This document shows positions 1,233-18,345 of a stretch of DNA of 20,000 nucleotides, in pieces. Position numbers and translations under genes: made by a program. The notes beneath the pieces are model-generated. The model was not told where the DNA came from. It searched no databases and worked only from the letters and a program-made list of their open reading frames with translations. The stretch lies in IMG/VR virus record IMGVR_UViG_3300031760_000031, one strand, 5' to 3'. Each line of letters starts with the position of its first letter. Within the stretch, counting starts at the first letter, position 1. The stretch comes from an uncultured virus (IMG/VR IMGVR_UViG_3300031760_000031) (lineage: Duplodnaviria; Heunggongvirae; Uroviricota; Caudoviricetes).

Positions 1233-1781
1233 TCAACCTTTACTATGGTATTTGGCTCTTCTTGCTTGATTCAAAGCTCGATTACGATTATAAATATCGC
1301 TTTGGCTCATCTTCTTAGCAGGAGCATTCTTTACTGCACAAACTCTAATTAATGTCATCAATCTTCCTAAATGCCATTTTTGACATTCAAATGGAATGTT
1401 ATAACACGTCATCCAATAATAAATAATTTCTGCAGTAATTATTTCATTCCCTTTGCCCTTAGATCCTTCGCTATTATTAAAAGTTGTTGCTGTCATTGGA
1501 TCGTTGATATAAGCATCGATCTTAGCAATTTCAATCGGAGGAATGCAATAATATATCATCGGATCTACGTTCTGCGTTAACGTCATGCATCGAACATAGT
1601 CTATTTTTTCTTCTTTTGTTTTTTCTTCCAATGAAAGATATGGCTTCTTCCATTTGGATTCCCACTTTGACAAAGAAACTAAAGAGTGTTCTAGCGAAAG
1701 CTGGATCTCATGATCAATATTAATGAATTCCTGCTTTTGCTCGTCAAACCATTCCCCTTTTGGAATGATTAATTTATACAT
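1233..1781 (-). CDS. Putative tail assembly chaperone / pre-tape-measure protein
   Basis: 182-aa ORF between the first chaperone-like gene and the gp10-like/TMP genes. Called mainly from synteny. Confidence 0.55.
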   Translation of the reverse strand: MYKLIIPKGEWFDEQKQEFINIDHEIQLSLEHSLVSLSKWESKWKKPYLSLEEKTKEEKIDYVRCMTLTQNVDPMIYYCIPPIEIAKIDAYINDPMTATTFNNSEGSKGKGNEIITAEIIYYWMTCYNIPFECQKWHLGRLMTLIRVCAVKNAPAKKMSQSDIYNRNRALNQARRAKYHSKG

Positions 1782-3660: not shown

Positions 3661-5469
3661 TTAAATGCTGCTGGACTCAGAAGCAACCTTCAGAACGATT
3701 GCAGAATGAGGACGAACCAGAGCACCAGAGCAACGAGTTTCAATCAAATACTTCATCTTGTTGTAATCGATATCGAAATCGTCGAACAGAGATACTTCAC
3801 CACCCTTATTCATACCAACGTTGTAATCCTGCAGGTCAAGAGCTACTGCATAGACGTCTTCAGGCATAACGGTCGCAGGAACCTTAACGACTCTGTCAAC
3901 AGACATTGCGGAAGCGAGTTCGTTCATACCCTTATAAAGTCTCTGACCGATCTTGTCTTCCATTAACAGCATGTCAGAAACGATGTCGGTTCTGACAAAT
4001 GCAGTAACGTTACCAGAGCCCTGGTAATCATCAAGAGCCTTAACCATCTTGTTCTGAATAGCATGAGCTAAAGTCTCGGAGTCAGCAACAGTTACTTCAT
4101 AAGCCATAGCATACAGATTCTCTTCGGTATCCTTAACAACCGGAATGATGCACATTTCATCAATCTTATCTGCGTCCGGAGCTGTTCTTCCGTCACCAAA
4201 GATGTATGCGCGAGCTCTTTCTTCATCCAGCTTGATGCGCATTTCTTTCTTGATCCAAGCAACCATATCAATATCAGTAATGTCGATCTGATCATCACGA
4301 TCAAACTTCTGAAGCTTATAAATTGTAGTTGGATCTGCTTTTCTCTTTAAGAGCTTGAAGACTTCTTCAACTTTCTTAGTACCCTTAACATAACCTTTAG
4401 CCCTAGCTTCGGCCTGGGTAATATCTGCAAACATCATCTTAATCTTCGCAAATGGAGTCTTATGAACACCATTGTTAATAATATCAACCCATCCGTTTGG
4501 ATTGGTATTGACAAATGGAACTTCGTTGCCATGTACGTTCTTGTATTCAGGATACAGATAGTCTAAATTCGTCACACTGTGAACAAGAACTTCCTGCGGA
4601 TTTAAACCATGCTGTAAGAAAGCTTCCTTAACGGATCCATATCTCTTAGCATCCTGTAAAGCCGCGTATACTTCTTCTTCCATGCCATCATGCTGGAGAA
4701 CATCTTCGTTATCAAATGCGTTATGTTTCATTTCTTCATCCTCTTCTTCTTCATCGTTAGTGCCAGCAGAAGCAAGAGCTTCGCCGACTAAGTATTCACA
4801 AACTTTTCTCTGCTCAGGTGTCATACTATCAAGAACATCCTGCACAGTCATATCGTCTTTTTTATCAGCCATTTTGTCCTCTCCTTTATCTAATTCTTTT
4901 TCTTCTGAAGTATCTGCATGCTCAAGTGTCTCTGATTCTTTTTCTTCGCTAGTCTTTTCCGAATCTTCAACAATTTCGATAAAATCAGAATCATCACTAT
5001 GCTCAAGAACGAGATCTTCTCCTGTATAAATTTCAGCGCCAATAGCTACAGGATCTTCATCAGCGCTATGAGCCATAACATACTCAATGGATGCTCCTGG
5101 ATTTGCACCGGCAAGTACCAGGCTAACCTCACGGATAATACCATGCAAAACATCTCCATCAGCAGTTTGTTTCAATCCATTTGCATAAATTGACAAACTC
5201 CCAATATCTCCATGCTGCATAATAGTTTTGATCCTTTGAGATTTTGGAAGGTCATTAAAATAGCCATACGCTTTAACACCGGCATCCACATTCTTTAGAA
5301 CTGCGTGACCAAGCACATTATCCGGGTCGTTGTGCTGATGATTCCAGACTAGTGGAACCGTCATTCCGTCACAATCCTTAAAAGCGTTATGACGAATAGT
5401 CCTTCCATCGGAGCATTTCAAATCATTTTTCGTGGCCCAACCCCAAAAATCATAGTCTTTCTTAGCCAT
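3661..5469 (-). CDS. Prohead protease-scaffold-major capsid fusion protein (HK97-type)
   Basis: The N-terminal ~130 aa carry prohead-protease-like motifs (VPLVWNHQH, VLGHAVL, SLSIYAN, IREVSLVLAGANPGA). An acidic linker follows, then a ~300-aa capsid domain ending FDDFDIDYNKMKYLIETRCSGALVRPHSAIVL. Directly follows the portal. Confidence 0.88.
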   Translation of the reverse strand: MAKKDYDFWGWATKNDLKCSDGRTIRHNAFKDCDGMTVPLVWNHQHNDPDNVLGHAVLKNVDAGVKAYGYFNDLPKSQRIKTIMQHGDIGSLSIYANGLKQTADGDVLHGIIREVSLVLAGANPGASIEYVMAHSADEDPVAIGAEIYTGEDLVLEHSDDSDFIEIVEDSEKTSEEKESETLEHADTSEEKELDKGEDKMADKKDDMTVQDVLDSMTPEQRKVCEYLVGEALASAGTNDEEEEDEEMKHNAFDNEDVLQHDGMEEEVYAALQDAKRYGSVKEAFLQHGLNPQEVLVHSVTNLDYLYPEYKNVHGNEVPFVNTNPNGWVDIINNGVHKTPFAKIKMMFADITQAEARAKGYVKGTKKVEEVFKLLKRKADPTTIYKLQKFDRDDQIDITDIDMVAWIKKEMRIKLDEERARAYIFGDGRTAPDADKIDEMCIIPVVKDTEENLYAMAYEVTVADSETLAHAIQNKMVKALDDYQGSGNVTAFVRTDIVSDMLLMEDKIGQRLYKGMNELASAMSVDRVVKVPATVMPEDVYAVALDLQDYNVGMNKGGEVSLFDDFDIDYNKMKYLIETRCSGALVRPHSAIVLKVASESSSI

Positions 5470-5489
5470 TTTGAATTTTCACTCCTTCA

Positions 5490-6845
5490 TTAAATTTCAG
5501 ACAATTTCAATTCACTCAAGCTCTTATCTTCAACCGTTTCCGCTGTTAATTGATCTTCTTGAGGATTTGTATTTTCTCCCTCAGAAGGTACTTCACTCAT
5601 TTGATTCGCTTCGTTCGGATCAACAACGTTCGGGAACTGGCTTCCGTTTGACTGGTTAATGTTCTTGTTGCTAAGTTCATTAGCTCTAGGATCATCAACA
5701 GGCAACAATCCAACAACTTGTCTAAATTCATTCGAAGACATAATCTCATTACGAGTAAACTTATCTGCAAGTTCAGCAAGTTTAGATGTTGGAACAAGCT
5801 TGAATGGATCTCTAAAGAACGCTATTGATTGCTTTTGTGTTATTGCGGTCTTTGTAAGAAACTTTCGTCTCATTTCGTCTGCGATAGCCGAAACAATTGG
5901 CTCAACGGTCCGAGAATAATAGTTCATCATAGTCTGTTCATCTGCAGAACCATCTAAAATACCAGTAGTGATCCCTAACTGCCCGTATACGATGTTTGTC
6001 AGGTATTCAATACGTGCTAATAAATTGTTCTCCAAAGGACGATTCAACTGTGTGATTTTCTCTGTCGCATCAACATATGCAATACCGTATTTGCTTCCAG
6101 TAAGCTGCATTTCAATGTCTTTGCGACGCTGCTCAGCCTGTTGCCTCTTTGTTTCAGTTTTAACTAAATATGGAAGTTGGATAATCATATCTAACTTCCC
6201 AGATCCACTTTGTTCATCAACGACGTCCATCAACGTTAAAGTTCTGATAAGTCTCTGTAGCGTTGAGTTTGGTTCATTCATAATTGAATAAAGAGGATTT
6301 TCAACGATTGCAACGTTCTTCTTAGCAAACCAAATTTCTTGATGCCTACCAGTTCGATCGTTGTAAACGTTAATCTTTACATTGTCAGGCGCCCATTCTA
6401 TAATCTTCCCAACCCGTAAAGACTGTATATCAAAAGATCCCTTATCGGGATCAATTGATGTATCGATTGGAACAATCGCTATAGTTCCTTCATCAAACAT
6501 TGACATGACTGCATCTTGCATAAATGCCCTAGCAGTTTGGTCTTTGTTTGCAGAAATTGTTAAGCAATCGTTCAATGCCGAATCCATCTCGCTAATAAAG
6601 TACCCGTTTTTATCTAATTTCACATGCTTGAATTTAATCTGGGCAACGTCTAATGCGATTCGATTATAGATAGATGTGACTATCGTTCGTTCGTTACCTC
6701 GAGATAATCTATAGCGATATGGATTATATGATGAATAGGAAATATCAGTGCGATCATCATCGTATTTCCAATAATAATCCTGAGTTGGATCCCTATTCAT
6801 GAAGGCGTTCCATGCGTGGATTAGCCTATCGCTGAATTTTGGCAT
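5490..6845 (-). CDS. Portal protein
   Basis: 451 aa with IYNRIALDVA, ILDGSA and NEIMSSNEFRQVVGL (HK97-portal-like C-terminus). GGAGG RBS. Directly upstream of protease-capsid. Confidence 0.88.
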   Translation of the reverse strand: MPKFSDRLIHAWNAFMNRDPTQDYYWKYDDDRTDISYSSYNPYRYRLSRGNERTIVTSIYNRIALDVAQIKFKHVKLDKNGYFISEMDSALNDCLTISANKDQTARAFMQDAVMSMFDEGTIAIVPIDTSIDPDKGSFDIQSLRVGKIIEWAPDNVKINVYNDRTGRHQEIWFAKKNVAIVENPLYSIMNEPNSTLQRLIRTLTLMDVVDEQSGSGKLDMIIQLPYLVKTETKRQQAEQRRKDIEMQLTGSKYGIAYVDATEKITQLNRPLENNLLARIEYLTNIVYGQLGITTGILDGSADEQTMMNYYSRTVEPIVSAIADEMRRKFLTKTAITQKQSIAFFRDPFKLVPTSKLAELADKFTRNEIMSSNEFRQVVGLLPVDDPRANELSNKNINQSNGSQFPNVVDPNEANQMSEVPSEGENTNPQEDQLTAETVEDKSLSELKLSEI

Positions 6846-6859
6846 TAGAACTCAACCTC

Positions 6860-7516
6860 CTATCCTAGGTAATTCTTTACTGCATCTATAGATACATTCA
6901 TAGATTTTGCAATATCAGCATAGTTTTTACCTTCGTTTTTCATTTCTGTTGCGCGTTTTCTTTGCTTATCAGAAAGTCCTTTATTTCCGTTATTATTGTT
7001 ATTGTTATTCTTATTCTTATTGTTGTTATTATTGCTATTATTATTGTTATCGCCAATCATAGTATCTACCAATGCATTCATGAATTTCTTTCCTGCATCG
7101 GCAGCAGCTGGAACTACAACTTTCTCAACCATAAGGTTCATAAATTGTTCACCCTTAGAAATAGGCTTTGGATCAAGATTATTAACTTGATTTCGTATAT
7201 CAATGGCGTCTTTTTCAAGGCGCATTCTTTGAATGTACTTTTCAAGTTGTTTATCAGTCATCTGTTTGATGTCCTTATTTCTTGGAGACTTCATTTTACG
7301 AGCTTCGGCTGCAGCTTTTAATTGTTTAACTTTTTTATCATAAGCTTTTCTCTCGGCTCTACTTCTCTTGATATAGTTACCATTCTCATCAGTACGGTAA
7401 CGACGTTTACCCTCGGCGGTCAGAGTTCCATCCGGATTCTGAAAGCGCCTAACACCCCATTTCATATTTAGGATCCCGTAATGGTAAAGCTCGTCTTTGT
7501 TTAAAAAATACGCCAT
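6860..7516 (-). CDS. LxH-leader protein (HYG..MKWGVRR family) with poly-Asn linker and C-terminal HTH
   Basis: N-terminus DELYHYGILNMKWGVRRFQNPDGTLTAEGKRRY. C-terminus QRKRATEMKNEGKNYADIAKSMNVSIDAVKNYL has an HTH pattern. AGGAGG RBS. Confidence 0.8.
   Translation of the reverse strand: MAYFLNKDELYHYGILNMKWGVRRFQNPDGTLTAEGKRRYRTDENGNYIKRSRAERKAYDKKVKQLKAAAEARKMKSPRNKDIKQMTDKQLEKYIQRMRLEKDAIDIRNQVNNLDPKPISKGEQFMNLMVEKVVVPAAADAGKKFMNALVDTMIGDNNNNSNNNNNKNKNNNNNNNGNKGLSDKQRKRATEMKNEGKNYADIAKSMNVSIDAVKNYLG
6981..7050 (-). repeat. Imperfect (AAY)n coding microsatellite (poly-Asn tract)
   Basis: Encodes DNNNNSNNNNNKNKNNNNNNNGNK. Confidence 0.85.
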
Positions 7517-7550
7517 TTTGAAATCCTCCTATTCTACTTTTTTATGTTTT

Positions 7551-7670
7551 TCATTTTCTTTCAGTAAGAGTTCCGTCAGGATTCTGATAATGCTTAATAA
7601 TCCACTTCTGTCCTAAGATTCCGTGATGATAAAACTCATCATTATTTCTTTTTCGACTGTGATTTACCAT
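7551..7670 (-). CDS. 39-aa mini-ORF or remnant consisting almost only of the leader motif
   Basis: Manual translation: MVNHSRKRNNDEFYHHGILGQKWIIKHYQNPDGTLTERK*. ATG at 7670 (alternative 7676) with GGTGA upstream. Overlaps the 3' end of the neighbouring gene in another frame. Could be a pseudogene. Confidence 0.55.
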   Translation of the reverse strand: MVNHSRKRNNDEFYHHGILGQKWIIKHYQNPDGTLTERK

Positions 7671-8235
7671 ACGCATAATCACCGATATCAATTAACCCGT
7701 ACAACGCAACATCTGCCATGTTTGCAAAAATACCGGCAACCGCTGCACTAGCGCGATCGGCACCTTTTGCAGTCAGGTCGTCATATACTTTTGTTCCAAA
7801 ACCTCCTGCCAATGCGGACTTAAGGAACTGTTTACCAAGATGCTGAGTCTGGATTTTCTTATTTGTCTCTTTACTCTGCCAACTATAATTTGCCTCTGCT
7901 GCAGCAGTCCTAGCTTCACCCAATGTCTTTTTATAATCGCTCTTTAAAGACTTGCGCTCCTCATCGGTTTTGGCTTTCTTTTTCTTTTCTTTGTAAATTC
8001 CTTTAATTTCCTTTTTATCTTGCCTGTATCCCTTATTAAGATTTACAGCAAGTCTTTGACCTAATGATGTATTAGTTAATGCTCTACCAATATTGTTCAG
8101 AACTTTATCAGTTCTATAACGTTCTTTGCCTTCAGACGTTAATGTTCCATCTTGATTCTGAAAACGACGAATACCCCATTTCTGGCCCAATACACCGTAA
8201 TGCATTAATTCATCTTTGTTGAGATAGTAAGCCAT
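7642..8235 (-). CDS. LxH-leader protein (HYG..QKWGIRR family), Lys-rich
   Basis: Begins MAYYLNKDELMHYGVLGQKWGIRRFQNQDGTLTSEGKERY. The ATG at 8235 has a GGAGG RBS; the ORF track starts at 8250. Confidence 0.8.
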   Translation of the reverse strand: MAYYLNKDELMHYGVLGQKWGIRRFQNQDGTLTSEGKERYRTDKVLNNIGRALTNTSLGQRLAVNLNKGYRQDKKEIKGIYKEKKKKAKTDEERKSLKSDYKKTLGEARTAAAEANYSWQSKETNKKIQTQHLGKQFLKSALAGGFGTKVYDDLTAKGADRASAAVAGIFANMADVALYGLIDIGDYAYGKSQSKKK

Positions 8236-8249
8236 AATAATACCCTCCA

Positions 8250-8978
8250 TTATCTACGATCTTTTAACTTATTAGCGTCTTCAGTTGCGAACTTCTCTGG
8301 ATTATCCAAATATTGCCTATAAGCTTTTTGTAATTCTTTTCCGCCTTTATCAGCAACTTCTTTATTTTGAACAATCTCTAAGAAGTCAGTCGAATATCGA
8401 TTATATTTTCTTGCTGCGTCCATTTTGGAATTAATATCCTCTAGTTTTGTCTTATACTGTCCATTAATGAACTGAGCACCAGCATAAGTTGACTCCGGAG
8501 CGAACTTAGCGATCTTACGAGAGTATTTGTTGATCAACGACTGAGCTTTATGAATTTTAGCCTCATTCTTTGAAGTACTGTTTTGCATTTTTTCTGCCTT
8601 TGCAGAAAGTTTTCCTGCTTTAGCAGATAGCTTCTGAGACTTAATTTCTAATTTAGTTCTCTTCTTATCACTAATAAGCCAGCCATTAACGGCTTTGTTG
8701 TGTAGCTTAGCAGCTTTGTTCTGAAGTTTGTTTGCCTTAGCCAACTTCTTTTCTGCTCTGTAGTCTTTTCCAGCATTTCTATCGATACGCTTCTGATATT
8801 TATCGATCTTACGCTGCTGTTTATCGATTTTACCAACTAATTTCGCATACCGTTTTTTACCCTCTTCTGTCAGAGAGCCATCTTCATTTTGGTATCTACG
8901 AATACCCCATTTCATTCCTTTAATGCCAGAATGGTATAATTCATAATTACCGCAAGACGTCATATAAAATTCCTGCAT
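8250..8978 (-). CDS. LxH-leader protein (HSG..MKWGIRR family), basic coiled-coil
   Basis: ELYHSGIKGMKWGIRRYQNEDGSLTEEGKKRY followed by a K/A-rich helical region. GAGGAGG RBS. Confidence 0.8.
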   Translation of the reverse strand: MQEFYMTSCGNYELYHSGIKGMKWGIRRYQNEDGSLTEEGKKRYAKLVGKIDKQQRKIDKYQKRIDRNAGKDYRAEKKLAKANKLQNKAAKLHNKAVNGWLISDKKRTKLEIKSQKLSAKAGKLSAKAEKMQNSTSKNEAKIHKAQSLINKYSRKIAKFAPESTYAGAQFINGQYKTKLEDINSKMDAARKYNRYSTDFLEIVQNKEVADKGGKELQKAYRQYLDNPEKFATEDANKLKDRR

Positions 8979-8990
8979 GCATACCTCCTC

Positions 8991-9019
8991 AAATAAAAAA
9001 GTCTCTCTGACGGAGACTT
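8991..9019 (-). terminator. Rho-independent terminator after the toxin-immunity pair
   Basis: Minus-strand RNA reads AAGUCUC-CGUCAGA-GAGACUU-UUUUAUUU, starting at the stop codon of 9018..9281. Confidence 0.65.
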
Positions 9020-9281
9020 AACTGTTTGAATATAACTTAAGTTTTTCTTGTGGAATAATTTTTCCATTAATAAATTCTTTTCTAGAAATCATTAAAGGAA
9101 AAAATACGCAAACGCTTTTGTCTTTTTTATTAACACCTATCAAACTGTCATTAACATTCAAGTTTTCATGTAATCTATAGTCAAATACAAAATATGAATC
9201 ATATTCGATTCCGTTAACTATTTTCTTACCCTTAGCAGTTTTAAATTCCGATGCCAATTTAATTGCTTCTTTTAATTCCAT
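9018..9281 (-). CDS. Putative immunity protein for the upstream papain-fold toxin
   Basis: 87 aa with its own AAAGGAG RBS, 14 nt after the toxin stop. It is the only cassette gene without the LxH leader. The pattern (helix LKEAIKLA, E.DSYFVF, IGVNKKDKSV) is reminiscent of YrhB/Imm35-like immunity proteins. Confidence 0.55.
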   Translation of the reverse strand: MELKEAIKLASEFKTAKGKKIVNGIEYDSYFVFDYRLHENLNVNDSLIGVNKKDKSVCVFFPLMISRKEFINGKIIPQEKLKLYSNS

Positions 9282-9295
9282 ATTTTCTCCTTTAA

Positions 9296-11020
9296 CTATC
9301 TAAACTTCTTTGCATACTCTAAATCGTCTATCCAATCAGTCTCGATATGCTGATCTTCTAATACGCCTACAATATCTGGAATAATTCTCTCTAAATCGTC
9401 ATAAGTAACGTATGTAGACCATCCTCCAATTGGGTAAATCGGTTCATTACGCTTCAATTCCCCGGTTTTAATCTTTTCGGTGTAGTCATTATACATATTC
9501 ATATAAACCCAAGCAGCCTGTTCCATAAGGTCATTCTCGACTTTACCGCTATTAGCTATTTGAGCAGGACATGTAACATATGACATCCTAGATTTGTCGA
9601 TTTCCAAATTGTCAGTTCGCATTGTATAAATAGCACCACTATCAATGTCAATATCAGACATTTCTTTAGTGTAATTCTTATTTAGCGCTTGGCTTCTCGA
9701 AATGTACTCTTCAATATCAGCTTCATGATTTGAATTTCCAGAGTATTTTTCAGTAGGCTGAGTATCGATAAAATGAACTTCACCGTTTACGATCTCATAA
9801 TTGAAAATATGCCCACCATATGGATACCAACGGATTACTGTAAATCCACTTGAATCTTCGCCATTTGATTCAGCAAGTAGTTGCTTTTTAAGTTCGTCTG
9901 CTAATTGCTTAGACAATTGACGATCTTTTTTCTCGTCTACAAATGGTTCATAATTTTGGTCTAGAGAATTATAAATGTTTGAGAAATCAGTAGCAATGAA
10001 CTCGCCACCTTTATAAAAGCTTTCGATTTCTTCATTCGTCATCCCACCATAAATATCAGGAATTGCTTTAACATCAAGCCCTTTCAATCTTAAGTCGTAT
10101 GAAATTGAACATGAATAACAATTTGTCTGATAATAGGCATCTTCTTCATAGTTTGGATTAATCGTATCTCTATTTTGCTTTGGAGATAGTTTCTCTTTAA
10201 TTTGTCTAAATAAAGGCTCTTTCGTCTTTTGATCCGGCTTATTAGTAGGCTGATCGATTGTATCGACAGACTTTTTAGACAAATTTGAAATAAAATTCGA
10301 AATGTTTTTATAAACATCAGTTTTTCTAATGTCTCTTAATGCATGACGCGCTATTTTTGTAGCATGATAAGCAATAAATCTTAATGCTTTATCTGGTCCG
10401 ACAATAAGTCCTTCTGATTTTTTGTTATTATTTTTTGACAGATCACCGAATATGTTTCTAGCATTTACAAACTTGTCATGTCTTTCATTTGTTTCTGCTA
10501 ATCCTCTTTTTATAGAAGCTTTTGCATTCGTAACAAAAGTCGTAACTCGATCCTTTAAATTATTAACTTTGGAAATACTAGAAGCTACTTTATTTTGGAC
10601 TTTTTTACTCTTTTCTTTTGCTGTCTTTTTAACTGCAGTAAGGTTGACACTTAAATTCTTATTCTTACTAATAAAAGATTCAGCTTTTTTATAAAAATCA
10701 CTTACAGGTTTATTTGTTTCTTTCTTTGCTGACTCTTTTTTATTTATACCGCTTAAAAAGTTTCGTCCAAGCTGCTTATAGTCTGTTCTTCCGCCAAAGT
10801 TTTTGGCTGTAGAATTTAAAAAGTAGCCTAACGATTTAAATTTGTTGGCTACTTGTGATGCTTTCATATAAGTGTCATATTCTTTTTTTGTATAGAAATA
10901 CCTGTACTTAGGTTTCGAAGTCGACCCAAGATTTATTCGCTGATAGTATTTGTGTTTTTCTTTTTCAGCTCCTAATTTAAGGCCCCAGTGGTATAGCTCT
11001 TTACTTTTTAGATACTCCAT
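9296..11020 (-). CDS. LxH-leader protein with papain-fold (Tox-PL-like) Cys-His-Asp toxin domain
   Basis: Leader ELYHWG...HKYYQRI...KYRYFY and a long basic linker, then INPNY...TNCYSCSISYDLRLKGLDVKAIP (Cys 10118-10120), WYPYGGHIFNYEIVNGEVHFIDTQ (His 9809-9811, Asp 9764-9766) and RTDNLEID. Confidence 0.78.
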   Translation of the reverse strand: MEYLKSKELYHWGLKLGAEKEKHKYYQRINLGSTSKPKYRYFYTKKEYDTYMKASQVANKFKSLGYFLNSTAKNFGGRTDYKQLGRNFLSGINKKESAKKETNKPVSDFYKKAESFISKNKNLSVNLTAVKKTAKEKSKKVQNKVASSISKVNNLKDRVTTFVTNAKASIKRGLAETNERHDKFVNARNIFGDLSKNNNKKSEGLIVGPDKALRFIAYHATKIARHALRDIRKTDVYKNISNFISNLSKKSVDTIDQPTNKPDQKTKEPLFRQIKEKLSPKQNRDTINPNYEEDAYYQTNCYSCSISYDLRLKGLDVKAIPDIYGGMTNEEIESFYKGGEFIATDFSNIYNSLDQNYEPFVDEKKDRQLSKQLADELKKQLLAESNGEDSSGFTVIRWYPYGGHIFNYEIVNGEVHFIDTQPTEKYSGNSNHEADIEEYISRSQALNKNYTKEMSDIDIDSGAIYTMRTDNLEIDKSRMSYVTCPAQIANSGKVENDLMEQAAWVYMNMYNDYTEKIKTGELKRNEPIYPIGGWSTYVTYDDLERIIPDIVGVLEDQHIETDWIDDLEYAKKFR

Positions 11021-11032
11021 TTTGATAATCTC

Positions 11033-11467
11033 CTATCCTAAAGTAGTAGTATGACTAGTAACCTTAATACGACTCTTCTTTGACTTTTTCTTCTTTGATA
11101 GCTTTTGAATAAAACTAGCTCCTTTTGAAGCTGCTCTTTCAACGCCACGTTCAATCTTTCCTTTTGTCTTAAATACAGTAACTGAGCCATCGCTCGATTT
11201 AACCTGGATTTTATTTGAAAGCCAACTGTTACCATTACTAGTAACTTCTTTGTATCTAGTAATACCGCCGTTTCTTTCAACTTTTACATATTCTTTTGTT
11301 GTTGGACGCAAATCAGTAGTTGGAGTTCTAAACTGATTCGTCATTCCTTTGTAAATATAAATCCACTTACCATTTCTCAAAAATTTGTCAATATATTTAT
11401 GATTGGTCCATGAAGAACCTTTAGCCGCATGGGCTAATTCTTTTGATCTATATAATTCATATCCCAT
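11033..11467 (-). CDS. LxH-leader basic protein (HKY...GKWIYIY type)
   Basis: SKELAHAAKGSSWTNHKYIDKFLRNGKWIYIY shares its leader type with the toxin gene (SKELYH...HKY...YRYFY). AGGAGG RBS. Confidence 0.75.
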   Translation of the reverse strand: MGYELYRSKELAHAAKGSSWTNHKYIDKFLRNGKWIYIYKGMTNQFRTPTTDLRPTTKEYVKVERNGGITRYKEVTSNGNSWLSNKIQVKSSDGSVTVFKTKGKIERGVERAASKGASFIQKLSKKKKSKKSRIKVTSHTTTLG

Positions 11468-11506
11468 AGTGGCCTCCTGTTATATAATGTTATAGAGGTG
11501 AATAAT

Positions 11507-11827
11507 ATGAAAATTGCTCAGATTTACTGTCCTAGTTGTGGTGGTTCAATTAAAGGTGACTTAACAAAAGATAGTGTAATCTGTCCTTTTTGTGGAACGC
11601 AGCTTGCTATCGATCATGAAAAGAAAGAAATTACTATAAACCAGAATATTAATAAGAATATTTCTATTAGTAAGAATCAAACAAAACGAATAATTGATGA
11701 AGCTGAAATAATTCGTGCAAAAACAGAAAATACAAAAGCAAAATCAAATGCAATCTCTGAAATAGCAGCAATTATAGCCTTACTAATCATAATTCTGTTG
11801 TCATTTTTAATGTCGATTATAGCTTAA
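11507..11827 (+). CDS. Zn-ribbon protein with C-terminal transmembrane helix (moron-like, opposite strand)
   Basis: Contains CPSCGG and CPFCG knuckles and a C-terminal IAAIIALLIIILLSFLMSIIA. GAGGTG RBS precedes ATG 11507 (the track starts at GTG 11498). TATAAT at 11483-11488. Fills the gap between terL and the cassette without overlap. Confidence 0.75.
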   Translation: MKIAQIYCPSCGGSIKGDLTKDSVICPFCGTQLAIDHEKKEITINQNINKNISISKNQTKRIIDEAEIIRAKTENTKAKSNAISEIAAIIALLIIILLSFLMSIIA

Positions 11828-11832
11828 TATAT

Positions 11833-13596
11833 TTAAAAACTATCCTTATTATGCTTAAACGCTACAAACGCATCCAGCATGGCTGCGACACAGTCTATCT
11901 TCTGTTCTGAACGTTTCTTATAGAGTTTACGATTTCCGTTCGTATCTTCTAGAGTAATACAATTACCCATGGCGAAATTCATGATTTGCTCGTCAAATAA
12001 CAAAAGTCTCTCTTCAGAGAGCTTTTTTAATTCTCCTAATGGAACCGATTCTGTTCTAGCACCCTGAATTACTTTCTCTACACCAAAAGGTCCTCGTTCT
12101 GTTGCCCAACGTTCTACAAATTCTTTTGCATTATATGGGTCATAACCAAAGCAATTTACATCATACTGATGCATATCGATAAACCGATCAAGATCCTCAT
12201 AGACATTCATCATATCGAGGATCGCTCCGTCCATTACAACAAGACTTCCTTCACGGATAAACTCATCGTATTTGCTCTTTAAAGCAGAAGGTAATTTCTG
12301 ATAAGTAAAAGCGCTGATATAGTTTCTTGTCTTAATGCCAAAAGATCCACCACGTAGAGGGAACATGAAAGTAAATGCACAAAAGTCATCCCCTTGAGAT
12401 AAATCACCACCCATAGCGCATTGCATTTTGTCGAATGACCGATATGGATGCGTCAGCGTTTCCTCATATGGGAAGTAATAAGTATAACCTTCAAGCGGAA
12501 TACCAAATCTCTTTGCAAGAATATCATTCCTATTTGCCGGAGATTTCTCAGCTCTTTCCTTGTCTAATTGATAAGTCTCATAGCTAACCGTGATTCCTAT
12601 GTTTGGATTTGCTTTAACCCACATAGCTGGGTTTTCTACTTCCTCGATCGAATCTAAACGATAATACCAAATCGATACTCTTGGGTTTATATAGTCACCC
12701 TTAAGTATGTCAATAAGCTCCATTTTGATTGTGTCGCCAGGACCATTACGAACTGTGCCCTCTGAAGAAGTCGCCACGATCAAATAGTCATTTACCTCTT
12801 CAATACCACCTTGCTCCTTAGTACAAGACTGCTCTATTGCACCAATAACGTCTTCCCTGGTATCACCAGAGAGCCATTCATCGACAGTAGCAATCTTAAC
12901 TCGATAACCCTGAAGCTTGTCTCGGCTCATTGGTTTGACTTCGATTGTGGATCCAGTAATAAAGTTCTGAATACCCTTCTTGGTAGAGGCTAGCTTAACT
13001 CGATCTGCTCGATTACCTGTTGTGTTTTGAAGTGAACCATATGTCATAAATTTAAACATAGGTCCTTTAGATCTGTTAATTGCTGTTCGTAATGGCGAAA
13101 GTACTTCATCCGCTTGAGCCATTGTTGGAGCTGTGACTGTTTGTCCATTTGAACTACGATCACAAATTAAAAAATATGCTTGCAAGAATGCAGCATACAT
13201 TGATTTTGCGGCGCCTCTGGCAATAATTAAAAATTGCTTTGTGATTAACCGTTTTTTAAACATTTTATTAACATAATGCCCACCTCGACCATTTGGATCT
13301 GGGATGTATACACTACGTTCAATAAAGTAATACCATCCGAAGATTTCTTCCGCCCAAAGTTTAAATGATTCAAGCATTTTCACATCGCCGCCATTAGTGA
13401 GAGTTAACTCATTCTCGCAAAAAGCGACAAAACCATTCATTGCATCTTTGTCGTAATAAACTCCGGGGTTTTTAATAAGCTCATCAATACGGTTCATTTC
13501 CATAGCGATGTACTTATTAATTGGTGTCTCTCCTCTCATTACAGATTCTCTAAACTGGCCGTAATATATCGGTACGGCAGTATTAGATAGTGACAT
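11833..13596 (-). CDS. terL: Terminase large subunit
   Basis: 587 aa with Walker A IARGAAKS, Walker B IATVDE, WVKANPNIG, nuclease motif GGDLSQGDDF, GYDPYNA and C-terminal KIDCVAAMLDA. Confidence 0.93.
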   Translation of the reverse strand: MSLSNTAVPIYYGQFRESVMRGETPINKYIAMEMNRIDELIKNPGVYYDKDAMNGFVAFCENELTLTNGGDVKMLESFKLWAEEIFGWYYFIERSVYIPDPNGRGGHYVNKMFKKRLITKQFLIIARGAAKSMYAAFLQAYFLICDRSSNGQTVTAPTMAQADEVLSPLRTAINRSKGPMFKFMTYGSLQNTTGNRADRVKLASTKKGIQNFITGSTIEVKPMSRDKLQGYRVKIATVDEWLSGDTREDVIGAIEQSCTKEQGGIEEVNDYLIVATSSEGTVRNGPGDTIKMELIDILKGDYINPRVSIWYYRLDSIEEVENPAMWVKANPNIGITVSYETYQLDKERAEKSPANRNDILAKRFGIPLEGYTYYFPYEETLTHPYRSFDKMQCAMGGDLSQGDDFCAFTFMFPLRGGSFGIKTRNYISAFTYQKLPSALKSKYDEFIREGSLVVMDGAILDMMNVYEDLDRFIDMHQYDVNCFGYDPYNAKEFVERWATERGPFGVEKVIQGARTESVPLGELKKLSEERLLLFDEQIMNFAMGNCITLEDTNGNRKLYKKRSEQKIDCVAAMLDAFVAFKHNKDSF

Positions 13597-13599
13597 TGG

Positions 13600-13959
13600 C
13601 TAGATCTCCCCTATCTCTCCAACATAATTTTGTGTAATAAAACCTCTCCATTCAAGCTCGTCTATCGACTCTTTTAAGGCGGTAGCAAGAGCAGAAGAGG
13701 TTGGCGGATCAAAAATAGATTTGGTTTTTAATCCAGCCCAAGTAATGAGAGTTCTTAAATTTATTGGCTGACCTTTAATTAAAATGTCTGACCATTTCGA
13801 TGTATTGTCCTTGATCGTATGTGGTTCATCTGATAACCCTTCTTGGTAGACAATGAATAATACTGCATTTACTGCAATAATAAGATCTCTATCGAAATCC
13901 GTGTTTCTTCGGTCAATGCCAATAACATCTTTGATCGAATCTAAAATACTTTGGTCCAT
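13600..13959 (-). CDS. Putative head-tail connector (gp6/gp15-like)
   Basis: Helical protein SILDSIKDVIGI...FDRDLIIAVN...FDPPTSS...ELEWR. ATG 13959 has a GGAGGAGG RBS. Confidence 0.55.
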   Translation of the reverse strand: MDQSILDSIKDVIGIDRRNTDFDRDLIIAVNAVLFIVYQEGLSDEPHTIKDNTSKWSDILIKGQPINLRTLITWAGLKTKSIFDPPTSSALATALKESIDELEWRGFITQNYVGEIGEI

Positions 13960-13961
13960 GA

Positions 13962-14399
13962 CTACCTCCTCCAAGGACATGTATCATTCGGAGAACGCTC
14001 ATCCAAAGTAAAATTGATGATGTCATTCTCAAACCCGTAATGAATCAGATTATGGGTTTCTAATTTTGTAGTAATTAAATTATTTGGATCGAACACAATA
14101 GGATCTCGATTTAAAACATCTTCGATAGTAATCGGATTAATGTGATGAACGAGAATACCTTTGTAAATATCGTATCCTTCGCAAGCTAAGTCACATCCAT
14201 GATCACGAAGAATAATTCTATTTCTAGTTGATCGCCATTCCGGACACTTATAAAGAACTTGATTAAGATGTCGTTCGTATCCAAATGTCTCTTCCGCAAC
14301 AACACCATTAAGCATCAAATATAACAGACGATCTTTAAATCCGTTAATGGACATTAGTTCGTCGTAAGATCTAGAACGGTTCGATTTCGTCGTTATCAT
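13962..14399 (-). CDS. HNH endonuclease (terminase-associated)
   Basis: WRSTRNRIILRDHGCDLAC...VHHINP...NNLIT...THNLIH. Lies next to the terminase genes. Start uncertain (14399; the track gives 14450). Confidence 0.82.
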   Translation of the reverse strand: MITTKSNRSRSYDELMSINGFKDRLLYLMLNGVVAEETFGYERHLNQVLYKCPEWRSTRNRIILRDHGCDLACEGYDIYKGILVHHINPITIEDVLNRDPIVFDPNNLITTKLETHNLIHYGFENDIINFTLDERSPNDTCPWRR

Positions 14400-14724
14400 C
14401 GTCAGATGAATTTCCTGTATAAATTCCGAATGCTTGCATTGCTGCTGCAAATAATTCTTCCGAATGTTTAGCGGACTTAAGAGCTTCTGTCTTTGCTACA
14501 AGAAGTTCATTCTCTTTTCTTAGTTTCTCCAGCTCTAATTTCGACTTTGTTGATCCCAATCTGAGAAAGTGGACCAATTCTTGTGAAGAAGCTGTATGGT
14601 TTCTAATTCTATATTCGACTTCATCTGCTGCCAAAGCAATCAATTGATTCTCTCGGCCTTCTTCTGTCTCAGCTGGACGGAGTTTTGGTACAGTTTCGTC
14701 GGTGACTATACGCTTTTTAGCCAT
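14371..14724 (-). CDS. Putative terminase small subunit
   Basis: 117-aa helical/coiled-coil protein, the first gene after the cos-like site and upstream of HNH and terL. GAAAGGA RBS. Called from synteny only. Confidence 0.5.
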   Translation of the reverse strand: MAKKRIVTDETVPKLRPAETEEGRENQLIALAADEVEYRIRNHTASSQELVHFLRLGSTKSKLELEKLRKENELLVAKTEALKSAKHSEELFAAAMQAFGIYTGNSSDDDNDEIEPF

Positions 14725-14940
14725 GATCTCACTTCCTTTCCCTATGGTTCTTCTATAGTTTGACTATACTTTAGTGTCATTTATGAGGCATTAAATACTA
14801 GGAGAGTTGATGCCTCGAATACAAAAACGAAGACACCTCGTGCGAAAGGAGAGTAGAGCCCTAACACGGTACTTAATACCTCGTAAATAACGCTAAAGAG
14901 TACCATGTGGAAAGCGATCGGGTTTGAAAAATATCCATAA

Positions 14941-15019
14941 AAAATTCCGCCGGAGAATTTCTTGAGACCGCCGCGATGCAATAGGGGGTGGGGCTTTTGA
15001 GGACCCCCCTCCCTATGCA
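14941..15019. other. Candidate cos/packaging-initiation site
   Basis: GC-rich island in AT-rich DNA. A short IR (AAATTC..GAATTT, 14942-14960), a GC core (14965-14976) and a G-run/C-run IR (14977-14993 with 15004-15019) lie just upstream of the terS-HNH-terL block. Confidence 0.5.
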
Positions 15020-15052
15020 AAAAAGAAAGAATGATAGAACAATTAATTTATT

Positions 15053-15349
15053 CTATGAACTTTTATAGTTTTTATTAATAACTTTTTTGTAAATGTGCAT
15101 AAAATCGTTTGCAATGATTTCATCGATCGCACGTTCGATCTCATCATTGTTTAATTCATCACTTAATTGTTCTGAAGTATTGGCTATTCTTGCTAAATAA
15201 TTGCTTGAACAATAACCTTTTAAGTTGTCATACATTAGCCAATCACTAAATTGAGTAAATGGATTATATGGATTGTCAATTGTTGTTAAAGCGAATTTCG
15301 CGTTGTTCTCAATTGAACTGTTCTTGATTTCAATTTCTTCTTTTTTCAT
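15053..15349 (-). CDS. Small acidic protein directly downstream of the RNAP gene
   Basis: LTTIDNPYNPFTQFSDWLMYDNLKGY...YLARIA...EIERAIDEII. AGGTGG RBS precedes ATG 15349 (track start 15361). Confidence 0.75.
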   Translation of the reverse strand: MKKEEIEIKNSSIENNAKFALTTIDNPYNPFTQFSDWLMYDNLKGYCSSNYLARIANTSEQLSDELNNDEIERAIDEIIANDFMHIYKKVINKNYKSS

Positions 15350-15363
15350 CCTTAATACCACCT

Positions 15364-18345
15364 TTACTCATTTCCTTTTAATGCTTTTGAAATTGTACTA
15401 GCAGACATTCCTAATGCTGCAGCAATTTCTGCGTTTGTTTTTCCGCTTTGAGACATTGCTTTAGCTCTACTTATCATTGCTGGTGTCATTGTTTTTCTTG
15501 AACTCGGAGTAGCTCTATCCCTTAGTGCATCCGTATCCGTATGGTCCAGAACTTTTCTTAAAGTGTTTGCATGGATCGCACCAGCCTGAATTGCTTCCCA
15601 CATTTTATCCGTGATTACAATCTCATTCCTCTGAGCCCCTACTCTCGTCCGGGCCTTAGTCAACTCTACCTGTCTAAGTTTCTTCTTGTCTTCCTTCTTT
15701 ATTGATGGATTACTTTGAACCTTAGCTTTAAATTCTAGTGTTGCGATAACTTGAGCTTGTCTTTCTCTAGGCTTATTTTTTGTGGAGAGGTCCAGTTGGT
15801 TCTGTATCTCTGTTACCTCTTTAGCATAGGTTTTTGCTGCTTTACTACTATACTCTATGCCTTTGGTATCATAACTTAATTTTCTTGCCTGATTAGCCAT
15901 CGCCTTCATAGTATTTGCATAGGAGGCATATAGTTGTTCCATTGGACTGTTGTAATCTGAGATAAGAGTTCTTGCATCATCTGTTTCTGCCATCTTGGTC
16001 GATTGCGTTTTACGAACTTTCTCAACTACAGTAGTTACACCGGTTTTCTTATTGGTTTTTTCAACAGTGTAATAAGCTTTTGGATCAGTCTTATAAAGCA
16101 ATGCACCTTCTGGCTTTGTTGGATCATAATCAGAACGACCTTTAATATTAATTCTTGGTTGTCCTTTTCTCCTTGGCACATCTTCTTCCGATTTAGCCAT
16201 TGAGATCAACGTAGATGCGCCCATTGATTCTTTGCCGTCTTTTGTTATATGAAGCTGGTATTTTCTTTTGAGCTTTTCAATCTCGTTTTGTGCATAACTA
16301 GACTGGTAATCAAGTTTATGCTTTTCAGCATCAATAACAACCATTGAATGGCGAACTGCTTGCGCAAGTTCATCTTCGCTGGCACCTTTAATTGTCATGT
16401 CTGAGATCAAGTTAGAAATTCTACCCATTTCATTCTGAGTGTTCTTCATAACTTTAAATTCAAGACCTGCTTTATTAAAGTAATGCTTATCACCATTTTT
16501 ATCTTCGTAAGTCTTACTTGGATCACAACCATATTTTTCTTTTGGATCAAATCCTTCAAGACCCTTTAATGATTTGCCATTGTTGTTCTTAATCCTTATA
16601 GTGCTGTTTGTTGGAATAACCATAACTGTATCGCCATCAAAATCAGCTCCAGAAAGTTTTTCCGCAACAGATGCATTAATGCCAACAGCATCTCTAGAAT
16701 TCTTTCCAATCATGGCAATGCCATCTTTTTGCTTATTGTTAACAGTTAAAATTGGAATTTCAAATTGGCCACCATGAGGATAACGAACTAAAGCAACTTG
16801 CTCACCATCTTTATAATTTGGAGCATAAATTTCGTTATTTTTCATTGATGGTATTGGAAGAATTACCTGAAATTTTTGTCTTGGTAGAGCAGCAGCGGTT
16901 AAATGAACTGCAGATGAATCACAGTCGCTGGCAAAAGAGTCAAGATAGTATTTCTTGATTGTATTATTCTCAAGGCTCATAATATCTTTTAGCTCTTGCT
17001 GCTTTTCAAGAATGGCTAAATTTAACTGTCTCTTAGCAAGCTGTACGCTTTGTTTTGATAAGAACTGCGCAGAAAGAGTATCCTTCCAGTTGTCCCAGTC
17101 ACCTTCATCCGCTCTTCGATTTAAAAGATTCAGATGCCGATTTCCATCCTTATCATAATAGTAAGTTTGTCCACCTTGCTCTTTATCTTTTATTAACGAA
17201 CCAAACGGATTATCGCGGTCAATTTCTTTTGTAATTTTATCTCTCTTTACGTCTTTTAATACTTCAAGTTTAGGAACATCTCTATGTTTATTGGTATTAA
17301 ATATAACGTCTATACCAGGAGGAAATGAGCTTTGATCAATGGCATAAGCAGCCATACCCTTGATATATTTTTCGTCATCAACAAGAATCCTTACTTGAGC
17401 ATAATTCTTTTCACCAAGAGAGAGATCCGGTACATTCCTACGGAGTTCTATCAAACCATCTTTATCTTTTCCACCATCTTCAGCATAACGAATCATTAGC
17501 CTACTCGAATCCATAGATTCTGGATATTCGAATTTCTTCTTAAAACCATCAATACCATTGTTGATGGCTTCATAATCCTTTATTGCCTTTATATGTTCGT
17601 AAGTATAAAAATCTTTCCAAGTAGCATCAGGCATAGCTACAACATTCATTGTTGTCTGTCTTGATCCGCTTGGATCTGTAATGTTAGGAACTCTTCCTCC
17701 AAACGTTTTATAACCTTCACCTTCAAGAATATAAACTGCATCGTCAAGTTTAGTTCTTGTAACATTAAGTTCTGTTTCTACGCCAGGACCAATATCAATC
17801 ATAGCCTTTGGATCATCTTTGGCTAGTTCGTTAAGGCGCTCTTTTAAAAAATCGGCGGTCTTTAAAGTTACTTCAATATTTGCTTTTCTTGATGGATTTA
17901 ATAACGATCTAACACTAGACTCATTTTGTAAACCCATCTTTCTAGCAATCTCAGAAGGACCATAACCAGCATCTCGAAGTGCTTCTGCACGATTAATCTT
18001 ATCCATTCTATCGAGATTTGAAGCAAGAGTAATTGCATGACGATATTCTGTAGTAGACATTTTTAATATCTTTGCTACAGCTGTCTCACCTTTAAATGTT
18101 TTACCATAATCCGGATTCTTGATCTTTTCGCCATTCTTAATAATGTATTCTTCATTATCTGTGTAAGTTGGTTTCTGTTTTCTTAACTGCGCTACAAAAG
18201 AGAGAAAGTCTCCAGAATGTTGAAATGGTGAATCTCCAGATCCCCAAGGATATCTTCCAGAACCAGGAGTTCCTTTAATATGGTCTGTTCCATAATGCAT
18301 TAAAAAATCGTCAAGTGACGGTTTCTCATTAATCATAAATATCAA
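15364..18345 (-). CDS. Single-subunit two-barrel (DPBB) RNA polymerase, QDE-1/YonO-like, with N- and C-terminal HTH motifs
   Basis: Catalytic-type LSGADFDGDTVMV (DFDGD at 16630-16644), upstream ALVRYPH and YAQVRI...YIKGMA (compare QIR..KG, RNP and DxDGD in cellular RdRP-family enzymes), and downstream MGRISN and VIDAEKH. Start is TTG 18345 or ATG 18336. Confidence 0.8.
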   Translation of the reverse strand: MIFMINEKPSLDDFLMHYGTDHIKGTPGSGRYPWGSGDSPFQHSGDFLSFVAQLRKQKPTYTDNEEYIIKNGEKIKNPDYGKTFKGETAVAKILKMSTTEYRHAITLASNLDRMDKINRAEALRDAGYGPSEIARKMGLQNESSVRSLLNPSRKANIEVTLKTADFLKERLNELAKDDPKAMIDIGPGVETELNVTRTKLDDAVYILEGEGYKTFGGRVPNITDPSGSRQTTMNVVAMPDATWKDFYTYEHIKAIKDYEAINNGIDGFKKKFEYPESMDSSRLMIRYAEDGGKDKDGLIELRRNVPDLSLGEKNYAQVRILVDDEKYIKGMAAYAIDQSSFPPGIDVIFNTNKHRDVPKLEVLKDVKRDKITKEIDRDNPFGSLIKDKEQGGQTYYYDKDGNRHLNLLNRRADEGDWDNWKDTLSAQFLSKQSVQLAKRQLNLAILEKQQELKDIMSLENNTIKKYYLDSFASDCDSSAVHLTAAALPRQKFQVILPIPSMKNNEIYAPNYKDGEQVALVRYPHGGQFEIPILTVNNKQKDGIAMIGKNSRDAVGINASVAEKLSGADFDGDTVMVIPTNSTIRIKNNNGKSLKGLEGFDPKEKYGCDPSKTYEDKNGDKHYFNKAGLEFKVMKNTQNEMGRISNLISDMTIKGASEDELAQAVRHSMVVIDAEKHKLDYQSSYAQNEIEKLKRKYQLHITKDGKESMGASTLISMAKSEEDVPRRKGQPRINIKGRSDYDPTKPEGALLYKTDPKAYYTVEKTNKKTGVTTVVEKVRKTQSTKMAETDDARTLISDYNSPMEQLYASYANTMKAMANQARKLSYDTKGIEYSSKAAKTYAKEVTEIQNQLDLSTKNKPRERQAQVIATLEFKAKVQSNPSIKKEDKKKLRQVELTKARTRVGAQRNEIVITDKMWEAIQAGAIHANTLRKVLDHTDTDALRDRATPSSRKTMTPAMISRAKAMSQSGKTNAEIAAALGMSASTISKALKGNE

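Follow-up and report, generated by a model that had tools for sequence, protein, structure and literature searches.

The DNA analysed here is a 20,000-nucleotide stretch of an uncultured virus of the Caudoviricetes (IMG/VR record IMGVR_UViG_3300031760_000031), referred to below as the window. It carries on its minus strand the head and tail-start module of a siphophage, with genes for a putative RNA polymerase, an HNH protein, the connector, the large terminase, a variable cassette, the portal, a protease-capsid fusion and tail proteins (Table 1). We investigated a short hydrophobic-x-His motif that recurs in the spacer of the capsid fusion and in N-terminal leader peptides of the cassette proteins and the RNA polymerase, a feature that is real and lineage-wide. 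A search with the capsid fusion retrieves 244 phage records from the Lactococcus 1706 / FP_oengus / actinophage group, nearly all with hosts among Arthrobacter, Gordonia, Streptomyces, Lactococcus, Curtobacterium, Rhodococcus, Microbacterium and Faecalibacterium, and searches with the portal and the polymerase lead to the same host groups. The window belongs to a siphophage of this group, whose members have been linked before (bioRxiv 10.1101/842583); the genomes of isolated relatives mostly measure 43-78 kb. No support was obtained for identity with Ca. Heliusvirales, since the markers of the latter in the available text are a separate protease and capsid protein and no RNA polymerase (PMC11283538).

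Table 1. Features of the window; positions are those of the whole stretch, and H and S numbers are residues of the capsid fusion.
Feature	Position	Strand	Remarks
Whole capsid fusion	3661-5469	-	protease, spacer and HK97-fold capsid
HK97-fold capsid domain	3661-4578	-	predicted mature start S298; 305 amino acids, 34.4 kDa
Acidic spacer/scaffold, residues 131-297	4579-5079	-	31% Asp+Glu; seven hydrophobic-x-His sites; helical segment 209-235
Spacer site H297, VLVHS	His codon 4579	-	
Spacer site H287, FLQHG	His codon 4609	-	
Spacer site H260, VLQHD	His codon 4690	-	
Spacer site H249, EMKHN	His codon 4723	-	
Spacer site H184, TLEHA	His codon 4918	-	
Spacer site H157, VLEHS	His codon 4999	-	
Spacer site H134, VMAHS	His codon 5068	-	
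Prohead protease domain, residues 1-130	5080-5469	-	assemblin/gp21 fold; probable catalytic H44 (5338-5340) and S93 (5191-5193)
Portal protein	5490-6845	-	RLIHA at residues 7-11; Pfam Phage_portal
Class-A leader protein (DUF7211)	6860-7516	-	DUF7211 27.9 bits; C-terminal helix-turn-helix, HTH_38 under cut-off
Relic 41-codon frame	7551-7676	-	VNHS spacer-type site 11 residues before degenerate class-A leader EFYHHG..., then stop
Class-A leader protein	7642-8250	-	basic body of unknown family; DUF7211 24.4 bits, under cut-off
Class-A leader protein, ELYHS	8250-8978	-	lysine-rich body; DUF7211 26.7 bits, just under cut-off
87-amino-acid leaderless protein	9018-9281	-	directly after papain-fold gene; no Pfam family, no named Atlas family
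Hybrid class A/B leader protein with Tox-PL1 papain-fold domain	9296-11020	-	Pfam Gln_amidase
Class-B leader protein	11033-11467	-	ELAHA...HKY...GKWxYxY; small +1 residue like spacer sites
Large terminase	11833-13596	-	without leader; context and control
Putative single-subunit two-barrel RNA polymerase	15364-18345	-	DFDGD at 568-572; class-D leader DFLMHYG...SGRYPWGSG

The protease-capsid fusion and its acidic spacer

Structure prediction indicates that the N-terminal domain of the fusion folds like herpesvirus assemblin and T4 gp21. With a model of residues 1-130 (predicted local distance difference test, pLDDT, of 93.5) herpesvirus proteases top the Foldseek matches. The VIA Z scores are 10.0 for the varicella-zoster virus (VZV) protease and 9.4 for T4 gp21 versus 4.0 for the next unrelated fold, and 120 residues align in the overlay with gp21 (root-mean-square deviation of 3.2). 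On the sequence level the domain matches PHROG 3270, head maturation protease, and Pfam Peptidase_S78 with E 0.0013 (19.4 bits, under the 21-bit cut-off). His44 and Ser93, invariant in 76 of 76 aligned sequences, are presumably the catalytic residues; this assignment follows the HK97 gp4 pattern and not a structural overlay. A sequence search for a solved structure of a relative found none. The capsid domain at the other end of the fusion retrieves the D3 and HK97 capsids in Foldseek (E 4e-12 to 8e-12).

Between the two domains lies the acidic spacer, for which an earlier note on this DNA had claimed seven hydrophobic-x-His sites. All seven are present, and they comprise every His of fusion residues 126-305, each with Leu or Met at position -2 (counted from the His). 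Composition shuffles of this segment, the bounds of which were picked after the sites were known, gave seven L/M-x-H in 0 of 200,000 trials and six in two. Six of the seven sites are located in segments with pLDDT below 50. For comparison with relatives we matched 83 open reading frames (ORFs) in 115 loci; both boundary motifs were present in 63 of these ORFs, which dereplication at 70% identity reduced to 40. The enrichment expected for homologous spacers is found: 234 of the 259 spacer His have Leu, Met, Ile, Val or Phe at -2, compared to 22% from composition. The residue at +1 is Ala (28%), Ser (28%), Asn (12%) or Gly (11%) at most of these sites, and the flanks are acidic. The number of sites per spacer ranges from 4 to 11, at variable positions in otherwise unalignable sequence. 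The first site, H134, is invariant. For 26 of the 33 homologues that could be scored, the last one lies 5 or 9 residues upstream of a conserved [IL]xxL[FYA]P (the others being three at 1, two at 10, one at 22 and one more listed at 5 or 9), and this fixed distance predicts the 305-amino-acid mature capsid protein in the window.

The proposal that the spacer motif is a prohead protease site with His at P1, the residue before the cut, thus finds sequence support in its conservation, in the sites at the domain borders, in the protease fold and in the polyprotein junctions described below, and we consider cleavage of the spacer after His highly probable. Gln was tried as an alternative P1 residue and rejected, as the pattern is seen at 37 of 241 spacer Gln, too near composition to claim. 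A different function of the motif, as a metal-binding or pH-sensing contact in prohead assembly that is no cut site, can also be envisaged: His in an acidic context is able to bind metals, and we know of no prohead protease with His at P1. Such a role is very unlikely given that the first and last sites are fixed at the domain borders, that the +1 residue is small and that spacer-type sites are placed at junctions in polyproteins; moreover, the fusion must be cut somewhere to yield an HK97 shell.

The helical segment 209-235 is conserved and is repeated several times in some homologues, for instance in phage Qui (L114, 13336-15768). It is probably a scaffold module.

Leader peptides of cassette proteins and RNA polymerase

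L/M-x-H with the His in the first 20 residues is found in seven of the 22 minus-strand window proteins (a count that omits the 23rd ORF, 11498-11827), while the other 15 are without it. The seven are the portal (H10), 6860-7516 (H12), 7642-8250 (H17), 8250-8978 (H16), 9296-11020 (H11), 11033-11467 (H13) and the RNA polymerase (H17). The earlier note had taken this for one shared tag. Its upstream part is indeed common, but the residue at +1 and the downstream tags differ by class: the leaders of the lineage fall into classes A, B, C and D, which share only the upstream hydrophobic-x-His. Class A corresponds to DUF7211 (PF23847, cut-off 27 bits), a profile not matched by 9296-11020, 11033-11467 or the polymerase.

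Three of the leaders and a relic frame (7551-7676) constitute one homologous family (DUF7211; 84-nucleotide repeat family D1, 62-71% identity) and hence are not independent occurrences of the motif. The relic overlaps the end of 7642-8250 and contains the EFYHH previously listed as a cassette-protein leader, which is F-x-H and heads no full protein. Its layout is that of the polyprotein junctions, and it resembles the remnant of a second module since lost. The probable start of 7642-8250 is its second Met, the Atlas record beginning at residue 6, and among 6085 candidates no longer, fused relative of this protein was found, which is weak evidence. An Asn-rich low-complexity repeat (6981-7062) is located in 6860-7516, upstream of its helix-turn-helix.

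In the related loci the class-A profile, whose seed pattern permitted Ser, Ala and Val at +1, identifies 176 ORFs (149 unique). Their consensus comprises Leu at -2 (90%), an invariant His and then GxxG[MQ]KWG. Class-A leaders are present in 62 of the 63 loci with both terminase and capsid, several of which are the same contig, with up to nine per locus. Class B is represented by 11 sequences, class C by five and class D by 15 polymerases and one other ORF. Two cassette ORFs in locus L075 (4748-6563) that are not polymerases open with the polymerase-type leader, demonstrating that the class-D leader is modular. The 192 unique non-core ORFs between connector/terminase and capsid divide into 107 with class A, 36 with another N-terminal hydrophobic-x-His and 49 with neither. 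Of 176 leader genes, 175 lie inside the head module, a biased figure given that head and polymerase genes served as anchors for retrieving the loci. Beyond these loci, searching 1.84 billion representatives with a profile built from 101 leaders yields 56,159 clusters (50% identity) at E ≤0.001. In cultured phages one window leader matches 181 records, and all their organism names are shared with the capsid matches.

The claim of a swappable, leader-tagged cargo set including the RNA polymerase is supported at the sequence level by the variety of the bodies and by the conservation of the polymerase motif. In Pfam searches of 43 long leader proteins from the loci we found one Tox-PL1 and one ADP-ribosyltransferase domain and otherwise only DUF7211, and 50 polyproteins contain two Tox-PL1 domains, four GNAT domains and one helix-turn-helix protein. 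The ADP-ribosyltransferase domain is fused to a class-A leader (L080, 6015-6962). Two pre-terminase proteins, L111 5628-7193 (Gravy gp12) and L113 6112-7728 (ReqiPoco6 gp015), have two internal leader-like sites. Their N-terminal part resembles what we take to be a 2H phosphoesterase pattern, making them possible candidates for anti-defence cargo. In some Gordonia and Streptomyces phages, leader matches sit in genes annotated as 'RNA ligase'.

The polymerase matches PHROG 4291 and, weakly, Pfam RdRP. The sequence has both the DxDGD motif and the two-barrel homology of YonO-like enzymes; the YonO-like RNA polymerase of this group has been described as putative, with the DxDGD motif (bioRxiv 10.1101/842583; PMC2919709). 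Its leader reads hydrophobic-x-His-x-G and follows acidic residues, with His and the -2 residue kept in 26 of 26 dereplicated homologues. In phage 1706 (GenBank EU081845) orf7 and orf75 alone match the four leader patterns, and both are labelled 'structural protein', orf75 lying outside the morphogenesis module. The window polymerase is 36% identical to orf75 over 1039 columns. The 1706 labels reportedly derive from virion mass spectrometry. Packaging of the leader proteins appears quite probable.

The portal is a weak link in this set. RLIHA is present, but the motif column has His in only 33 of 52 homologues (Asn 10, Arg 4, Lys 4, Ser 1). The +1 residue is always Ala, Gly or Ser, and the context is basic and helix-like. 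The description of the motif as usually following acidic residues, which holds for the polymerase, does not fit the portal, where RLIH follows a basic residue. We regard membership of the portal in the tag set as doubtful, and its cleavage as slightly improbable.

Polyproteins, alternative explanations and a proposed mechanism

The best 150 of the 56,159 profile matches, taken from a ranked list without genomic context, are polyproteins with two to five leaders each. Internal leaders retain Leu (93%) and His (98%) as strictly as N-terminal ones. A spacer-type site (hydrophobic-x-His-[SADTGN]) is located at most 35 residues upstream of 124 of 198 dereplicated internal leaders (142 of 241 undereplicated); for control windows the count is 52 of 1757 and for interior windows 8 of 407. 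The junction site as a common C-terminal feature of leader proteins was rejected on the basis of 3 of 139 and 9 of 137 C-termini. The junction sites before internal leaders thus provide independent support for the spacer-type motif as a cut site on cargo. A Met occurs 3-16 residues upstream of 91 of 256 internal leaders versus 26% expected, which lends at most weak support to the view that such leaders simply mark old fusions and retain former start codons.

Against a purely accidental pattern, for which one can say that three-residue motifs are common, stand the composition shuffles, the hydrophobic -2 residues of the spacer His and the excess of junction sites over control windows. Chance is excluded for the spacer and the leaders, if not for the portal, and as an explanation of the whole it has practically negligible probability.

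The motif falls in two classes, the spacer type with a small +1 residue and that of most leaders with His or Tyr at +1. This suggests that the leader's own His, followed by a bulky residue, has a partly different role. As the conserved tag is C-terminal to the His it would stay on the cargo, and the analogy drawn earlier with the removal of the T4 capsid-targeting sequence (CTS) does not hold in this point.

Several observations weigh against the mechanism that we favour below. The +1 residue of class-A leaders (His 47%, Tyr 37%, Phe 6%, Trp 4%, Ser 3%) and of the polymerase leader (Tyr in 21 of 26) is unlike that of spacer sites. The polyproteins are without genomic context and related by descent, 74 of the 198 internal leaders lack an upstream spacer-type site, and among eight internal leaders from loci with context only two have one of the strict pattern. 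In 1706, orf62 and orf71, outside the morphogenesis module, carry the 'structural' label without a leader. The motif also persists in proteins outside the cassette: LEHS is retained close to the start of the tail-module protein 1233-1781 (minus strand) in 37 of 42 homologues, and in the connector 17 of 39 homologues have a comparable motif near the N-terminus. The three residues by themselves thus do not identify cargo, and N-terminal L-x-H, found in the seven window proteins as the earlier note had said, is not diagnostic. Finally, the fraction of His in a hydrophobic-x-His context is raised in the protease domain (137/240), the capsid domain (59/149), HNH (104/224), the tail terminator family (65/130) and the families of 14371-14724 (27/53) and 15053-15361 (10/15), because conserved columns are counted many times; it is low in terminase (20/105) and exonuclease (13/125).

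The bulky +1 residue of classes A and D would be explained if these leaders are never cut and act as substrate mimics, docking in the groove of the capsid-fused protease as cargo receptor while the spacer is still cleaved. This would be a variant of the favoured mechanism that differs in the fate of the leader His. In the polyproteins the second, spacer-type site before internal leaders would be superfluous if the leader His were cut efficiently, and Leu at -2 is stricter in leaders (90-94%) than in spacers (44%). We consider such pure docking improbable. The +1 residue is Ser or Ala in 9 of 11 class-B sequences and Ser in 8250-8978, more than a third of the internal leaders do without the second site, and several cuts within one propeptide are normal in the SPN3US and T4 literature. 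Cleavage at the leader's own His could in our estimate go either way. A tentative combination, against which we would place the odds, is that one capsid-fused His-specific protease reads two signals, one for cutting (hydrophobic-x-His with a small residue at +1) and one for docking without a cut (Leu-x-His with an aromatic +1 residue, then GxxG[MQ]KWG), the tag being kept for ejection and each capsid subunit's protease domain serving as cargo receptor.

It is also conceivable that only the spacer is a protease site and that the leaders form a small module for some other kind of binding (to DNA or RNA, to one another, to the polymerase or to an outer capsid site), their first residues being incidentally alike or a relic. 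The class-A leaders have a conserved basic and aromatic core (G-x-x-G-[MQ]-K-W-G-x-R-R), a net positive charge is found for 143 of 147 class-A proteins, and bare hydrophobic-x-His is common near N-termini, occurring in the first 30 residues of 12 of the 70 ORFs of phage 1706, so that the case must rest on conservation and context. These, however, point away from a separate module: four different tags share one upstream signature, spacer-type sites cluster at the junctions before internal leaders, both 1706 leader ORFs are labelled structural, and leader genes are concentrated in the head module, subject to the biased choice of loci. Overall a separate binding function is rather unlikely.

We favour, with a probability of roughly 0.65 for the mechanism as a whole, a His-specific prohead protease combined with a modular head-cargo tag. 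The fusion protein would assemble the prohead with protease and acidic scaffold inside. The His-Ser protease would cut after the His of hydrophobic-x-His before a small residue, free itself at H134, chop the spacer and leave the 305-amino-acid HK97 capsid protein. Leader proteins, with an acidic-Leu-x-His followed by tag A (DUF7211), B, C or, on the polymerase, D, would be recruited into the prohead. The tag C-terminal to the His would stay on the cargo, the protease perhaps trimming the few residues before it, and multi-module cargo polyproteins would be cut apart at the spacer-type sites just upstream of each internal leader. The cargo would comprise the RNA polymerase, small basic proteins and Tox-PL1, ADP-ribosyltransferase and GNAT enzymes, most likely delivered with the DNA; injection of the cargo we hold to be somewhat favoured.

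If correct, this would assign a function to DUF7211, predict a His-P1 specificity for a prohead protease and make the YonO-like polymerase a virion enzyme in siphophages of ordinary size. The likely injected proteins of a widespread lineage could be listed from sequence by means of the clusters that match the leader profile. A loading peptide of about 30 residues for phage heads would also make a useful tool, as the T4 CTS has done. Since many members are cultured on laboratory hosts, as the 244 records show, the claim is directly testable. Literature searches on DUF7211, the leader letter strings, mass spectrometry of capsid-protease fusions and the group's virion proteomics, subscription papers not covered, found no description of such a system.

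Putative cargo enzymes, neighbouring genes and known systems

The papain-fold protein 9296-11020 matches Tox-PL1 (PF15644, Gln_amidase) with E 1.3e-7 and 33.1 bits (cut-off 24.1). The Tox-PL1 signature NC-H-DxQ (PMC3482391) is intact, with C301, H404 and D419. The designation 'toxin' in the earlier note has this domain match as its only basis, and Tox-PL1 domains may be toxins or processing peptidases (PMC3482391). The homologue of the small neighbour 9018-9281 follows that of 9296-11020 in one related contig (L006, L036, L071), and the protein is a candidate inhibitor. Its identification as Imm35 is unsupported: none of five small ORFs downstream of papain-fold genes matched Imm35 at E up to 10, and the protein has no named Atlas family. 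Papain-fold ORFs in the L004/L069 3568-4778 region and at L012 4502-4756, one of them leaderless, are followed by ORFs of 79-84 amino acids that resemble 9018-9281 in size and position.

Two further observations concern the surroundings of the cassette. The opposite-strand ORF 11498-11827, between terminase and cassette, encodes a zinc-ribbon membrane-anchored protein. Loci L069, L082, L088 and L089 have a recurring block of unrelated leaderless ORFs inserted in the terminase-portal region of the head module.

The 1706 / FP_oengus / actinophage supercluster shares the gene set and gene order of the window; its descriptions, in the available text, make no mention of a leader, a cleavage motif or cargo loading. 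MuF effectors and polyvalent proteins (PMC5512222, PMC3482391) are similar in that their genes sit among the head genes and their variable enzyme domains (Tox-PL1, ADP-ribosyltransferase, 2H) are attached to an N-terminal module associated with the head, with packaging proposed. In contrast to these, a peptide of about 25-40 residues (DUF7211 and others) takes the place of the MuF domain as carrier here, and no MuF match was obtained in 23 window proteins, 43 leader proteins and 50 polyproteins. The available text of PMC5512222 contains no mention that we found of 1706, ReqiPepy6 or YonO.

A parallel for the specificity is provided by the giant phages, with their ejection proteins and virion RNA polymerase. 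SPN3US gp245 cuts at A-X-E, a P3-x-P1 motif with Ser preferred at P1' and several cuts per propeptide (PMC10052503), and gp245 and phiKZ gp175 share the P3-x-P1 form, the small P1' residue and the multiple cuts predicted here from sequence. Shared N-termini on paralogous head proteins and a packaged RNA polymerase are further likenesses, packaging in the window's lineage being the probable reading of the leaders, and SPN3US also processes its portal. The differences are Glu at P1, propeptides that are mostly long (111-254 residues), a multi-subunit polymerase whose beta subunit is unprocessed in SPN3US, and the roughly 80% of head proteins left uncut in SPN3US.

In the T4 system a single protease cuts up the core proteins and takes short propeptides off the N-termini of internal proteins (PMC5694885). 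Its gp21 has the same protease fold, a short N-terminal leader is shared by unrelated proteins as with the CTS, and the leader proteins here include an ADP-ribosyltransferase (L080), as T4 has Alt with IPI-III. P1 is a predicted His here and Glu in T4, and the CTS of 10-20 residues is removed (PMC5694885), whereas the tag of the present leaders follows the His and would be kept. Furthermore, protease, scaffold and capsid are one polypeptide here, and cargo also comes as multi-leader polyproteins. The proposed system would thus work like the T4 capsid-targeting system but is not a member of it.

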